Shown one piece after another: positions 49,430 to 58,122 of a stretch of DNA of 64,000 nt (positions are counted from its first letter, which is position 1; the number at the start of each line of letters is the position of its first letter). Source of the stretch: Escherichia phage vB_EcoM-LTH01; sequence record PP430345. The stretch is one strand, 5' to 3'. Below the pieces are notes generated by a model. It did no database searches, had not been told where the DNA came from, and saw nothing but the letters and a program-made list of their open reading frames with translations. Both the position numbers and the translations under genes were made by a program.

Positions 49430-50400
49430 CTGCTCATCCCAAAATGTTGTACACCTCTCCAAAATGTTGTGCCCACCAAACTATATAGTCCTTCCAAACT
49501 GTTGTACTCCAGCTACAATAATGCCCAAATATCGTACAACGATTCCCACAAATATCGATTCATCCCAAAATTAGGTAGTTTGCCTAAAGAGTAACCACTA
49601 CTTGGCCTACTGAGGCGCATCTTTTGCCACAGAGTTACCTCCCTTCCCTATACATCCATCCCTCATAGTTTAGAATTTCCAGTATATGTCTACTCTGAGT
49701 GGACCTCCATCATGAATTTTAAACGACAACTTTTTAGTTTTTATACCCTCCCGCCAAAATTTTGAGTCACCTCTTATGGGGTATGCCGCCTGTGAATATC
49801 CCACAAAATATCTCACAGGTCATAAAATATACCTCCCCGCCAAATTTTATGATGGATACTCCACGGGGGTGGGTCCATTATTTATCCTGCCCAAATATAT
49901 CTAAAGGGGGTAGCCTAAAGAGGCTCGCCAGTAGTGTCCCTTGACCTTGTTCCTCGTCAGCAAGAAAGAAGAGGATGTTTGCATCTTTTTTGTTGAGTGC
50001 GTTGGCACTGTTGCCAGGCACGGCGACCGTGGGGGAGGGGGAGGGGGTCGGATGTTTTCAAAATATCCAGGAAGTCAAGCATTATTTCTATTTATTTTCA
50101 ATCCACAATACATCTTTGATTCGACTTGTCAAGAAAAATGTTGTGCTCTTCCAACAATAAAGTTAAAGATTTCTATTGACTTCTGAATCTGATTTAGAAT
50201 ACTGATTTCAATCTGCATTTAACATAATACAACTTATACGCACTACAAGCGACTTGCAAGCGCCCTTCTTCCAGTCCAACAAGTGAGGCGACCTCAAGCC
50301 CCGCCAGGTCTGGCCCCTTCCAACTTGTGAGAAGAATAATCCCAACTTGTTACTATCCAACTGTGAATTATTCCAACTGTACAGAAGCGACTCCATCAGG
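49430..50400. repeat. iteron-like short direct repeats (CCAA-N-TGT family)
   Basis: CCAAAATGTTGT x2, CCAAACTGTTGT, CCAACAAGTG, CCAACTTGTG, CCAACTTGTT, CCAACTGTG, CCAACTGTAC in an ORF-free region. Confidence 0.5.
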
Positions 50401-50534
50401 GCCATCAATAGCCTGAGCGCCCCGCCATACTCTGGCAATAAAAGCAAGAAAAAATTTATTTTGGGAGAGAAGAGAGAAGAGAGTTTTACCTAGCAATATT
50501 CTATTGTCTGTTCATTCTGTGGGCAAGTAACAGC

Positions 50535-50600
50535 CTTTTACGGCCTCTTTGTGTACTGTGCATCCTCTTTGTGTACCCTACAGCCTCTTTGTGTGGTCAC
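50535..50600. repeat. triple direct repeat CCTCTTTGTGT
   Basis: three copies at ~22-bp spacing. Confidence 0.55.
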
Positions 50601-50714
50601 ACTAACGGCCTTCCTATTGACTAGCTATTCACTTTATATGAATAACAAAGCATTAAATAATTCAATATTATCTTCGATAATGTATTGACAAAAGATAAAA
50701 GATTACTACAAGTA

Positions 50715-50828
50715 GACACTATAAAACGAGGAAACGAAGAGAACAGATAGCAACAATCTGTTTCGTTGATATCGGTTATCACCGATGACCGCATAGCGGT
50801 AGGAGGGGTATACTCGTTTTATAGTGTC
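50715..50828. repeat. nested inverted repeat (long hairpin/cruciform)
   Basis: GACACTATAAAACGAG ... CTCGTTTTATAGTGTC 16-bp perfect inverted repeat enclosing ACAGAT/ATCTGT and ATCGGT/ACCGAT palindromes. Confidence 0.55.
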
Positions 50829-51084
50829 GCTCCCTACGGTCGCGCCACCTCCATACTCTGGCAATGGTATCTCTTTAAAACTGCTTTCTTTGTGGGCAAG
50901 ATAGTTCTTTCTTTGTGTGTTTTGTTGTGGTAAGCTATCAGATTAGTTTTGATTTTTGGGAGAGAGATTCCAAAGGGTGATTGGATTGATGGGTAAAGTA
51001 AGTTAGAGGGGTTAGATAGGATAAGATGATCCAAATAGGGAAGAGATTAATAGAGTTGGGAGAGTCACGCCGATGGATATGATA

Positions 51085-51105
51085 AGGGCCGCTATTGCGG
51101 CCCCT
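51085..51105 (-). terminator. intrinsic terminator closing the minus-strand block
   Basis: minus strand GGGCCGCAATAGCGGCCC followed by TTATCAT. Confidence 0.5.
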
Positions 51106-51996: not shown

Positions 51997-52272
51997 TTAT
52001 GAGCGTCTGGCAAATTCAAGAGTTTTTTCTTCGAAATCTTCTTGAGCTTGCCACAATACTGATTGCATCATGTGATTAGCATCAGTGAAACCGTTGCTTT
52101 TAGCAAACTTATCCGCGCCGCCTTCTTCTGCGTATTCTGCATTCATAGCTGCAACATTATGATACTCGATGTTATTGAGGTAAGGACTTGCTACACCGTC
52201 AACATCTGTAGCCACTACCATATCCCAAAACTCAGTGATTTCTTTGTCTAATTTGGCGTTAAGTTGTAACAT
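51997..52272 (-). CDS. hypothetical acidic protein
   Basis: 91-aa ORF downstream of TTGACA promoter. Confidence 0.55.
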   Translation of the reverse strand: MLQLNAKLDKEITEFWDMVVATDVDGVASPYLNNIEYHNVAAMNAEYAEEGGADKFAKSNGFTDANHMMQSVLWQAQEDFEEKTLEFARRS

Positions 52273-52792
52273 TTTGTACCCTTTTTGATGTTTTGAATGT
52301 TTGCCCTACGAGAGATATAATAGTATACAACTTACTTTTGTGTCAACAATCTTTTTAACTTCTTTTCTTGTTTCTTTCTTTCTTTCCTGGTGCTCTTTTG
52401 TTTCTCACAGTTTAACACTTCGATCGCAATCTCAGTAGAAGGTGTCTAGGAGCGCCCCTTTTCGGGACTTACTCAACGTGCCCTTTCTCAACACTTGCCA
52501 GCCTTTTTCATCTGGACGATTCGAAAACTTAGAAACTTTCTGATACTTTATCGGATTCGACTTCTCAGAACTTACATCATAGAGTAACTACTTTGCATCA
52601 CTGCTTCGCTGCCCTACGTGATAAATAATAATATAACGGTAGTCCGGTGTCAATAGGTAGAATTGTAAAGATTTGATAGATTTTATTTTATTTTTGGTGA
52701 GTATTGATAGTTATTTACTATCGCCATATAGAGGGGTCGTCCAGTGATTACCTTCCCCTGTCCCCAGTTGCCGCCCGTTTGATAAGAATAGC

Positions 52793-52823
52793 AAAAAAGG
52801 GCCGAACAAGTCAAGCCCTTTTG
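52793..52823 (-). terminator. intrinsic terminator
   Basis: minus strand AAGGGC...GGCCCTT hairpin + T6. Confidence 0.55.
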
Positions 52824-52829
52824 TTGAGG

Positions 52830-53090
52830 TTAATAAACAGACCAGGGTATTTTTAACATTCCGTTAATCTCTATCGTTTGCTCAAGTATGGCCCTGTTGA
52901 TAAATGATGTTATTGCTTTAATGTCTACTTGTTCGAACGTATCAGAGTAGCACCAACTATAAGCGCCAGAATCATCCTTTGAAGGATACACTTGTACAAG
53001 GAGATCGCCACCTGGTTGATCAATCAGTTCAACACATAACTTTAATGCTTTTGCCTCTTCTACCGCATTAATTAACATTGCAATGCTCAT
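52830..53090 (-). CDS. hypothetical protein
   Basis: 86-aa ORF; terminator downstream. Confidence 0.5.
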   Translation of the reverse strand: MSIAMLINAVEEAKALKLCVELIDQPGGDLLVQVYPSKDDSGAYSWCYSDTFEQVDIKAITSFINRAILEQTIEINGMLKIPWSVY

Positions 53091-53293: not shown

Positions 53294-53341
53294 TATTGTT
53301 TCTCTTTGGTTGACTTGGGGCGTTGCCGCCCCTTATTAATA

Positions 53342-53587: not shown

Positions 53588-53686
53588 GATTTTTTACCTT
53601 TTCCAGTGGGCTGCACCATTGCCGCCCTACGTGATAAATATTAGCATATTGACGATCCGTGTCAATAGTTTTCCATTAATATTTCA

Positions 53687-57402: not shown

Positions 57403-57654
57403 TTACGCTTTTAACTTTGCAAGTGATTTATTAAACATTTCAGCGGTAATATTTTTACCCGTTGGTTGTACTTTATCCAGGATCTTTTGGTGTGCACTAC
57501 GTCCGAAAGAATAAGATCCATAAGCCGTTAGCCAATAGTCGCCATTTTGGTTTACATGCACCGCACAATAAGGTACTCCACGGGATTCATCACTAATGAA
57601 GTGAGATACTGTACCCGTTACATTAGCCGTCGTAGTTTTGATTTGTTCTAACAT
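57403..57654 (-). CDS. hypothetical protein
   Basis: 83-aa ORF; promoter/palindrome/SD CCTAGGAG unit. Confidence 0.5.
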   Translation of the reverse strand: MLEQIKTTTANVTGTVSHFISDESRGVPYCAVHVNQNGDYWLTAYGSYSFGRSAHQKILDKVQPTGKNITAEMFNKSLAKLKA

Positions 57655-57741
57655 TTCTCTTACTCCTAGGACATAGGCGGGAAGTGTTCCCGCCTTCTAT
57701 GTAATATAGTTTACTCGTTTTCTCTATGCTGTCAATGATAA
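57655..57741 (-). promoter_or_regulatory. early promoter + GC palindrome unit
   Basis: TTGACA ... GGCGGGAACACTTCCCGCC ... SD. Confidence 0.5.
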
Positions 57742-58122
57742 TTACATATCTTTTTTGCGTTTAACATCAACAGCGTTCGAATAAACAGGGATGTTATTGT
57801 CACGGCAAAAGCGGGAAAGGTAACTATACTCTGAAAACTCTTTTCCTTCCAGGTTGATAACCTTGCTAAATTCTTCCAGTGCCACGGTATCGAAATGATC
57901 ACCATAGCCATATTTGAACGGCACGCTAACTACCTCAACCAATTTACCAGCGATCTCCACGTCTACACTTAAAGAGAAATAAGTATTACCGTATGATTGT
58001 TGGAACCAACGGCGGGCCAGGACGTGCACCGCTTCCACGTTTGACAGCTTGATTTTAGAATCTGCATTCAGAGTAACCATATCAGCATAATCGCAAACGT
58101 TAGTATTTTTAGCCATTTTCAT
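57742..58122 (-). CDS. hypothetical protein
   Basis: 126-aa ORF; promoter TTGACT-N17-TAAATT and palindrome upstream. Confidence 0.55.
   Translation of the reverse strand: MKMAKNTNVCDYADMVTLNADSKIKLSNVEAVHVLARRWFQQSYGNTYFSLSVDVEIAGKLVEVVSVPFKYGYGDHFDTVALEEFSKVINLEGKEFSEYSYLSRFCRDNNIPVYSNAVDVKRKKDM

Follow-up and report, generated by a model that had tools for sequence, protein, structure and literature searches.

A conserved, structured RNA-like element in a promoter-driven gene slot of Escherichia phage vB_EcoM-LTH01 and unrelated coliphages

The window analyzed here is a stretch of 64,000 nucleotides (nt) from Escherichia phage vB_EcoM-LTH01 (sequence record PP430345), the genome of which is ~145 kb long and has UPEC06, A73, A5-4, and A7_1 (unclassified Vequintavirinae) as its nearest relatives. 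From ~50 kb to 64 kb the minus strand carries all genes, and their proteins are small and belong to PHROG families of unknown function. Our subject is a 557-bp gap in this region, between the stop codon of an 86-amino-acid (aa) gene (52832-52830) and the ATG (52272) of a 91-aa gene (51997-52272, minus strand; PHROG 7287, unknown function), the first protein gene downstream. An original prediction had described the gap as an orphan promoter unit and a candidate small RNA. Behind the promoter in question, here called P1, we find a conserved noncoding RNA unit of 171 nt, element C (52437-52607, minus strand), that runs from GAAGCAG to ACACCTTCT. Element C had been overlooked in the original prediction, as had two further promoters (P0 and P2) and a conserved cassette at 52610-52818.

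P1 (52625-52653, minus strand) consists of TTGACA (52653-52648), 17 nt, and TATTAT (52630-52625). It scores 11/12, the top promoter score, which is reached by three sites in 50-56 kb; the scan returned 34 promoter-like sites, versus 16.9±3.5 in shuffled sequences. Transcription is predicted to start near A52619. A73 keeps both hexamers and the 17-nt spacing, though 10 of the 17 spacer bases have changed. The near-consensus minus-strand promoter of the original prediction is therefore confirmed as present and conserved in relatives, and so is the context that it was said to share with a unit at ~53600-53665: the same TTATCACGTAGGGC follows P1 directly (52624-52611) and follows the promoter at 53665-53637 (unit 53665-53624). 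The first bases that would be transcribed, CGTAGGGC (52611-52618, minus strand), are common to five promoter units of the phage. The five copies in the window are all on the minus strand, each 5-6 nt past a -10 hexamer; 0.46 copies would be expected by chance, and none of 100 shuffles reaches five. Four of these units have an ATG ~35-45 nt downstream, and the unit at 52618 does not.

In a search with 52300-52625, unannotated DNA of unrelated siphophages matched 52437-52524 at 86-94% identity; the phages are Rtp, ZL19, BUCT-XGG-1, and PH1062 (Drexlerviridae) and SA80RD, SLUR75, and WildeMaa (Seuratvirus). The reciprocal search with the Rtp copy matched only 12 of 50,697 phage records, and the carrier lineages are UPEC06-like myoviruses, Rtp-like Drexlerviridae, and three Seuratviruses. 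Pattern scans of metagenomes yielded one further true copy, on an Rtp-like contig (L022), and those of IMG/VR returned only Rtp itself. An origin from the host or a plasmid was rejected, as there was no match in 5,426 E. coli genomes or 72,556 plasmids; a scan of 185,579 species genomes likewise gave no true match and one chance match inside a coding sequence (CDS). When the siphophage carrier loci were compared with the whole window by tblastx, element C was the sole similarity, and it scored in all six frames. A literature search, including one with the literal sequence, returned nothing on element C, which appears to represent an undescribed RNA family.

Conservation is concentrated in one part of the element. 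Element C spans 171 nt in the window and in SA80RD and 128 nt in the Rtp-like phages, and its 86-nt core (52437-52522, minus strand; 3' tail AGACACCUUCU at 52447-52437) could be aligned across 10 distinct sequences. Relative to SA80RD, identity is 94% in the core, 53% in the 5' half, and 18% in the 3' flank. Across the three lineages the 5' part is at 53% or lower and the 3' flank at random levels. Within the UPEC06 group element C is 98-100% identical, against 88% in A73 for the adjoining 52600-52830. The 5' part (52523-52607, minus strand) is made up of two diverged modules, each with GAAG, a short hairpin, and AAAGUA; it includes an internal duplication of 36 nt, which has diverged (76% identity over 17 nt), and the AGAAAGTTTCT palindrome (52541-52531). 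The hairpin of the first module is GCA-GUGA-UGC (52604-52595, minus strand), and that of the second is UCG-AAUC-CGA (52560-52551, minus strand). There is one such module in Rtp and two in the window and Seuratvirus; where the window has UCG/CGA, Seuratvirus has AGC/GCU, and these compensatory changes depend on the alignment. The palindrome and an A/G tract (52388-52351), which the original prediction had singled out, do exist, but they are the least conserved parts, and the informative part is the core (52522-52437). The A/G-rich tract (AGGAAAGAAAGAAAGAAACAAGAAAAGAAG..., 52351-52388, minus strand) differs in length among close relatives and is probably a spacer or the upstream A-tract of P2.

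The core most likely folds into three hairpins closed by a helix in which a 5' GAAG-type strand would pair with the 3' CACCUUCU. The hairpins, all on the minus strand, are H1 (52517-52497), H2 (52494-52478), and H3 (52474-52450, with a GAAAA pentaloop at 52463-52459). Tested on the 10 distinct core sequences, the four-helix model pairs 96.7% of alignment cells, and three pairs have changed on both sides (A-U to G-C in H1; G-C to C-G and C-G to U-A in H3). The H1 switch is seen between lineages and also within one (Rtp versus ZL19). None of 500 shuffles reached the covariation score or the percentage paired, and controls in which the model was slid along the alignment fell to 34-50% paired. Loops and junctions of the core are invariant across the alignment while the stems covary. 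The folds predicted for the Seuratvirus and Rtp units agree on a closing helix, GGAAGGUG/CACCUUCU or AGAGG/CCUUCU, around H1, H2, and H3. In the siphophages a further covarying hairpin follows the core; the hairpins after the core lack U-tracts. A covariance model of the core (R1) scores 115 bits in the window, where it finds a single copy.

The alignment also indicates which strand would be transcribed. The same pairs are canonical in 96.7% of cells on the minus strand and in 81.7% on the plus strand, where 30 G·U cells become A·C. Since the G·U pairs fit only the promoter strand, the RNA strand is that of P1. The local RNAalifold run did not separate the two strands, whereas the count of G·U pairs did.

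The noncoding status of the element is borne out by the reading frames. Behind P1, ATG ORFs (open reading frames) reach at most 7 codons, the longest encoding MKKAGKC, so the original statement that no ORF exceeds 8 codons is correct for ATG starts; it does not hold for GTG and TTG starts, which open minus-strand ORFs of 20, 21, and 28 aa, nor for the plus strand, where ORFs extend up to 45 aa. No ORF is conserved in start, stop, and frame among the homologues. The sense GTG ORF is interrupted in WildeMaa and SLUR75 by a 1-nt insertion and in A73 by a stop codon, the lengths of indels in the A/G tract are not divisible by three, and antisense ORFs vary among lineages in start, stop, and upstream frame. 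The MKKAGKC ORF is intact in all 13 copies; it has no Shine-Dalgarno (SD) sequence in the window, and it shows K/N and K/E changes. An antisense segment of ~17 aa, with the shared LSQHLPAFFI(R/W)TI, is in frame in every lineage within an ORF of 30-33 aa, which automated annotation calls in UPEC06. Plus-strand "hypothetical protein" CDSs lie over the element or its tail in UPEC06 (2100-2375), in two further loci, L010 and L011 (1502-1645), and in PH1062 (1290-1633). The annotated plus-strand CDSs over element C are probably spurious. A decayed pseudogene, the outcome that the original prediction had named as speaking against an orphan noncoding unit, was rejected: tblastn with five proteins that occupy the slot in relatives gave only noise against 52273-52625, and there is no trace of the genes that fill it there.

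In every carrier, element C lies within a large unannotated gap, in the sense of the early operon that follows. Its homology starts at GAAGCAG, 10-17 nt past each lineage's own -10. The scan tool detected the promoter before element C in the window and in SA80RD; that of the Rtp-like phages was read by eye as an extended -10, TGgTAATAT, and is below the tool threshold. Among the Seuratviruses, SA80RD, WildeMaa, and SLUR75 have element C behind the early promoter, and Skure, CAjan, and many others have a gene for a 94-aa protein behind that same promoter; the next gene is the same after either. In Drexlerviridae sisters the shared promoter-associated motif is joined directly to the rtp74 homologue, and element C, the second promoter, and rtp75 are lacking. 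A second promoter of the lineage's own type follows element C in the window and, as read by eye, in the Rtp-like phages, so that the downstream genes there would be independent of P1 or its counterpart. From the exchange of element C for a gene and from this second promoter we infer that element C is accessory and swappable and that the downstream operon does not require it. Based on the sequence comparisons, element C appears to have been exchanged horizontally among unrelated virulent E. coli phages.

A motif at the boundary of the Rtp-like cassettes is of interest in its own right. In five loci of this group (Rtp at ~1440-1680, or L004, together with L006, L013, L014, and L022), AATAGCAC-N4-TG(C/T)TAAA lies 22 nt upstream of a -10-like hexamer. 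The AATAGCAC motif occurs once before element C and again before the first protein gene, and the sister phages share it at the cassette boundary. Judging from its position, it is likely both a recombination point and a lineage-specific promoter signature.

P1 itself belongs to a cassette that is far more widespread than element C. A search with 52600-52830 gave matches in 174 phage records, including Phapecoctavirus, Justusliebigvirus, Vequintavirus (rV5-like), and Pectobacterium and Cronobacter Certreviruses; 52610-52818 is ~76-86% identical in these records, and the matches are always unannotated intergenic DNA. In Phapecoctavirus and Justusliebigvirus the cassette has the order terminator, P0, leader (AACGGGCGGCAC..GGGG.AG..AATCACCGG), palindrome, P1, and CGTAGGGC. 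An ATG follows ~40 nt after CGTAGGGC, and the protein gene that it opens differs from phage to phage; the stretch of element B and P1 is ~80% identical in these two groups, before unrelated genes. P1 thus reads as a standard early promoter of the phage family, with its cargo replaced. In the window, the gene driven by the P1 cassette of Schickermooser and muut has a homologue (57427-57654, minus strand; 70% identity) behind a different promoter, TTGACA-17-TAAACT. This unit (57427-57760) retains the same 5' hairpin, GGCGGGAA...TTCCCGCC, which shows that exchange takes place between promoter and 5' hairpin.

P0 (52785-52814, minus strand) is TTGACT-18 nt-TATTCT with an extended -10 TG and scores 9/12 with the TG. 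Its -35 lies inside a terminator-like hairpin (52795-52822, minus strand), read from the sequence as AAAAGGGC, 12 nt, and GCCCUUUU with further Ts, and the two form a composite terminator/promoter. The hairpin closes the upstream gene cluster; it is symmetric and so may act in both directions. Its counterpart is annotated as a terminator in Schickermooser and Murica, and it is missing from the scan list because its 12-nt loop is above the limit of the scan tool. A promoter at the position of P0 relative to ACGGGCGGCA is retained in Phapecoctavirus, Vequintavirus, and Certrevirus, and Justusliebigvirus has a different promoter, TTGCCT-17-TATTAT, at equal distance. Behind P0 lies element B, with the core AACGGGCGGCAACTGGGGACAGGGGAAGGTAATCACTGGAC (52739-52780, minus strand), which is leader-like and has an SD-like GGGGAAGG and no start codon. 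P0 and the leader after it together span 52739-52814; the leader, AACGGGCGGCAC.TGGG.ACA.GGGG.AG..AATCACCGG, is ~80-86% kept in five groups (Phapecoctavirus, Justusliebigvirus, Vequintavirus, Certrevirus, and the UPEC06 group), and in the window it stands before only another promoter. A structured RNA was rejected for element B, as the alignment of the five phage groups gave no convincing consensus fold (-6 kcal/mol); possible small ORFs in it have no conserved start. Between element B and P1 is a palindrome, GATAG-N7-CTATC (52706-52722), which in relatives is TTGATAG-N7-CTATCAA. An extra CTATCAA half-site (52679-52673) lies immediately upstream of the P1 -35, and in phage arall both arms are altered together (TTAATAG/CTATTAA). 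On this pattern the palindrome is a candidate operator, at which a phage protein would regulate early promoters.

P2 (52317-52346, minus strand; TTGACA-18-TATTAT, 11/12) is followed by CGTAGGGC at 52310-52303, lies between the ORF-free stretch and the next ATG (52272), and serves the 91-aa gene. Antisense to it is a plus-strand promoter-like site, TTGAAT-17-TATAAT (52293-52321; 10/12); if active, it would transcribe element C in antisense, towards the symmetric hairpin at 52795-52822. The early promoter units with CGTAGGGC(GGCAAT) are at 52310, 52618, 53631, 54938, and 60917 on the minus strand. Another sequence, GGGCGGCAA, has eight minus-strand copies, including those at 53331, 54127, and 54597, and starts hairpins in 5' untranslated regions (UTRs) and intergenic DNA (GGCGGC...GCCGCC). 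Together, the CGTAGGGC and GGGCGGCAA units resemble shuffling cassettes of the PeSL type. In T4-like phages, PeSL cassettes are composite terminator/early-promoter motifs that mediate gene shuffling (PMC2839356, PMC4122927). The likeness is that P0, P1, and P2, as cassettes of terminator, promoter, and 5' hairpin marked by CGTAGGGC and GGGCGGCAA, flank different cargo across genomes: the composite motif is kept and the cargo varies, which is a statement about the promoter cassettes and not about the RNA element. The phage family and the sequences are different, however, and the cargo here is a noncoding RNA element instead of an ORF.

Further from the gap, 49900-51100 is an ORF-poor region of ~1.2 kb at the meeting point of plus- and minus-strand transcription, and the cumulative GC skew has its peak there. 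Within it are three 20-nt tandem repeats (50539-50594), a direct repeat of 18 nt whose copies (50422/50848) lie 426 nt apart, and an inverted repeat of 21 nt (50715-50735 / 50808-50828). A "non-coding" box is also mentioned in the rV5 genome paper.

Comparison with known RNA systems did not place element C in any of them. None of the 4,227 Rfam models matched the window at its gathering threshold; at E<=10 the sole match was to a Drosophila snoRNA model, with 20.9 bits against a gathering score of 101. ARAGORN found no tRNA or tmRNA gene in the window, and the predicted core folds form a four-way junction with arm and loop sizes that are not tRNA-like. The closest analogy in position is the put RNA of phage HK022, which is ~70 nt long with two stems, occurs twice per genome, and is needed for read-through of the early operon (PMC9378689); about ten put sequences are known (PMC9378689). 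What element C has in common with put is a position right after an early sigma-70 phage promoter, a short, structured RNA with multiple stem-loops and conserved unpaired bases, the lack of an associated protein gene, and a very small family. It differs in having 86-171 nt, with three hairpins and a closing helix; the window has one copy of it, sister phages do without it, and another promoter comes after it. Homology to put was rejected, since R1, run with filters off on the whole of HK022, had its best score (12.4 bits, E = 0.13) in the terminase gene and found nothing in the early region.

The inner stem of H3 (GUCCC-GAAAA-GGGGC, 52468-52454) has 5 bp and covaries, and its pentaloop is GAANA, with A, C, or U at the fourth position and no variation at the others. 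The boxB of phage lambda has a 5-bp stem and a GNR(N)A pentaloop; this comparison goes back to what Legault and colleagues reportedly described in 1998 and to the literature on N antitermination. H3 thus follows the boxB pattern in a promoter-proximal leader, as in lambda nut. Hairpins of boxB form are found 21 times in the window, and the form is common by chance and not diagnostic. No conserved boxA (CGCUCUUA-like) lies upstream of H3. The sole site with one mismatch, CGCTCCTA (52454), was rejected because it shares bases with the 3' arm of H3 and lacks conservation in the Rtp-like phages and in Seuratvirus. Element C further differs from lambda nut in having no second site and in that most of its invariant sequence is outside H3. 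The tblastx comparison of the carriers' loci with the window revealed no shared gene, although no search was aimed at arginine-rich N-like proteins.

RNA is also used by phages against host defenses, as by the pseudo-ToxI of phage PhiTE of Pectobacterium (presumably a member of a related phage group), by RNA anti-CRISPRs, and by phage tRNAs that replace cleaved host tRNAs. Element C resembles these in being noncoding, patchy in distribution, located in an early/accessory region, and horizontally exchanged. Unlike ToxI and pseudo-ToxI, it has no near-identical tandem repeats and no Rfam ToxI match; ToxI-like repeats (~34-45 nt) were rejected, as TRF finds only short low-complexity arrays. We know of no cognate defense system for element C, and by eye it is unlike the E. 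coli CRISPR repeats known to us. A classical small-RNA terminator with a U tail was not found between 52437 and P2, and the 3' hairpin of the siphophages has no U-tract. The idea of an (ARN)n site for Hfq is weak and inconsistent between carriers: there are runs of 6 ARN triplets in the window (~top 0.5% of windows), 10 in the Rtp-like metagenomic contig, and 2-5 in other carriers. A CsrA site was rejected because the H1 loop has GGA in Rtp and Seuratvirus and AGA in the window, and a hammerhead-like CUGAUGA was rejected by eye, as all copies have CAGAUGA or CGGAUGA. The combination of invariant loops and junctions with covarying stems in a 5' leader is the pattern of a riboswitch, yet in the window a promoter separates element C from the next gene.

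We propose the following account of the locus, to which we give an even chance. The gap would be a stack of three sigma-70 promoter cassettes, of the type that the family employs for small early genes. P1, which drives protein genes in relatives, would here drive a noncoding "gene", the 171-nt element with its 86-nt core, and synthesis of the RNA would fall in the first minutes of an infection. Through its invariant loops and junctions the RNA would act in trans on an E. coli protein or RNA common to the hosts of the carriers, serving as a decoy, sponge, or regulator in an accessory host-takeover or anti-defense function. The strongest support for action in trans is the patchy distribution of element C across lineages as a gene-slot occupant, together with the independent promoter. 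More specifically, and more doubtfully, element C may be a mobile RNA gene that unrelated coliphages have acquired, for example, as a decoy for a defense nuclease or an RNA-binding regulator. The small-RNA interpretation of the original prediction is partly supported, and it is substantially strengthened and refined: a conserved, structured, strand-specific RNA-like element is present, and its product may be a discrete small RNA.

Several observations weigh against this account. The high identity of the core could in part reflect recent transfer rather than constraint. H2 and the outer stem of H3 are invariant and are thus without covariation support. There are only ~10 distinct sequences, and, as the tool cautions, relatedness alone can let sequences outscore shuffles when there is no structure. 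The folding of single sequences is no more stable than that of shuffled ones (z = +0.8 on both strands). The P1 start is a prediction from sequence, and the host target is postulated. No terminator or 3' hairpin lies between element C and P2 in the window, so element C could just as well open a longer early transcript, and in Seuratvirus, where it serves the first early gene as 5' UTR, its position fits a role in cis equally well.

The main rival is accordingly a leader that acts in cis, by antitermination of the nut or put kind, as a riboswitch-like aptamer, or as an mRNA stabilizer. Element C is always immediately behind an early promoter and in the sense orientation, in Seuratvirus the first early gene has it as 5' UTR, and it is not followed by a terminator in the window, all as expected of a leader. 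So are the 5-bp stem and GAANA loop of H3, with the variable fourth base known from lambda boxB, and the riboswitch pattern of invariant junctions and covarying stems, with a covarying hairpin after the core in siphophages. We nevertheless consider a cis-acting leader rather unlikely, because sister phages with the same promoter and downstream genes carry a protein gene instead and because a second promoter follows element C in two lineages. The antitermination form encounters further difficulties: boxA is absent upstream, its only look-alike octamer overlapping the 3' arm of H3 without being conserved; the boxB form recurs 21 times in the window; R1 detects nothing in HK022 and a single copy in 64 kb; no intrinsic terminators occur within 2 kb downstream in the minus-strand operon; and the hairpins after the core have no U-tracts. 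Improbable in our view is an element that works as DNA, whether a protein-binding site, a recombination hotspot, or an origin primed by an R-loop from a purine-rich transcript. Speaking for it are the stack of three promoters within 500 bp, the purine-rich tract after element C, and cassette boundaries that coincide with repeated promoter sequences, as recombination predicts. However, compensatory changes and G·U pairs indicate single-stranded RNA of a defined strand, sister phages without element C show that it is not an essential origin, and the A/G tract is lineage-specific and variable in length. The turning point of the GC skew, moreover, is at 48-50 kb and not at element C, and a replication origin was rejected.

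There are two further alternatives. A micro-protein, encoded by the plus-strand LSQHLPAFFI(R/W)TI frame or by the sense MKKAGKC, could account for an antisense segment that stays in frame in every lineage and is annotated in UPEC06, for a 7-codon ORF intact in 13 of 13 copies, and for the plus-strand promoter-like TTGAAT-17-TATAAT at 52293-52321. It is very improbable, given that starts, ends, and upstream frames vary by lineage, WildeMaa and SLUR75 have a frame-shifting 1-nt indel immediately ahead of the shared segment, and the start has no SD sequence. Substitutions are non-synonymous in 3 cases and synonymous in 2, including W/R and K/E, and none of the six frames stands out in similarity. 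A synonymous change 13 nt off accompanies the W/R change without exception, a coupling that pairing explains and coding does not. Least probable of all is a region with no function, be it a pseudogene in decay or neutral filler that travels with the promoter cassette. Low-complexity A/G repeats that vary in length would suit such filler, and the case for a function of element C is drawn from sequence comparison. Yet no residue of the relatives' slot genes is left, the core is 86-94% identical across unrelated lineages while its flanks are random, the element is 98-100% identical within the UPEC06 group versus 88% for 52600-52830 in A73, and the stems covary.

The accessory regions of phages are read almost wholly as lists of small proteins, and here a conserved structured RNA fills the slot. 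Automated annotation has covered element C with probably spurious "hypothetical proteins" in several deposited genomes. Element C appears to have moved among three unrelated coliphage groups, and in each of them an early promoter of the group's own stands before it. The BASEL collection includes one carrier, WildeMaa (Bas23), and other carriers grow on E. coli K-12, so the proposal is directly testable. If the RNA does act on a host factor, an RNA-based tool would be added to the takeover and anti-defense repertoire of these phages, whose hosts are well-studied models, and if it proves to be a mobile decoy, it would represent a new class of RNA-based phage counter-defense or takeover factor.

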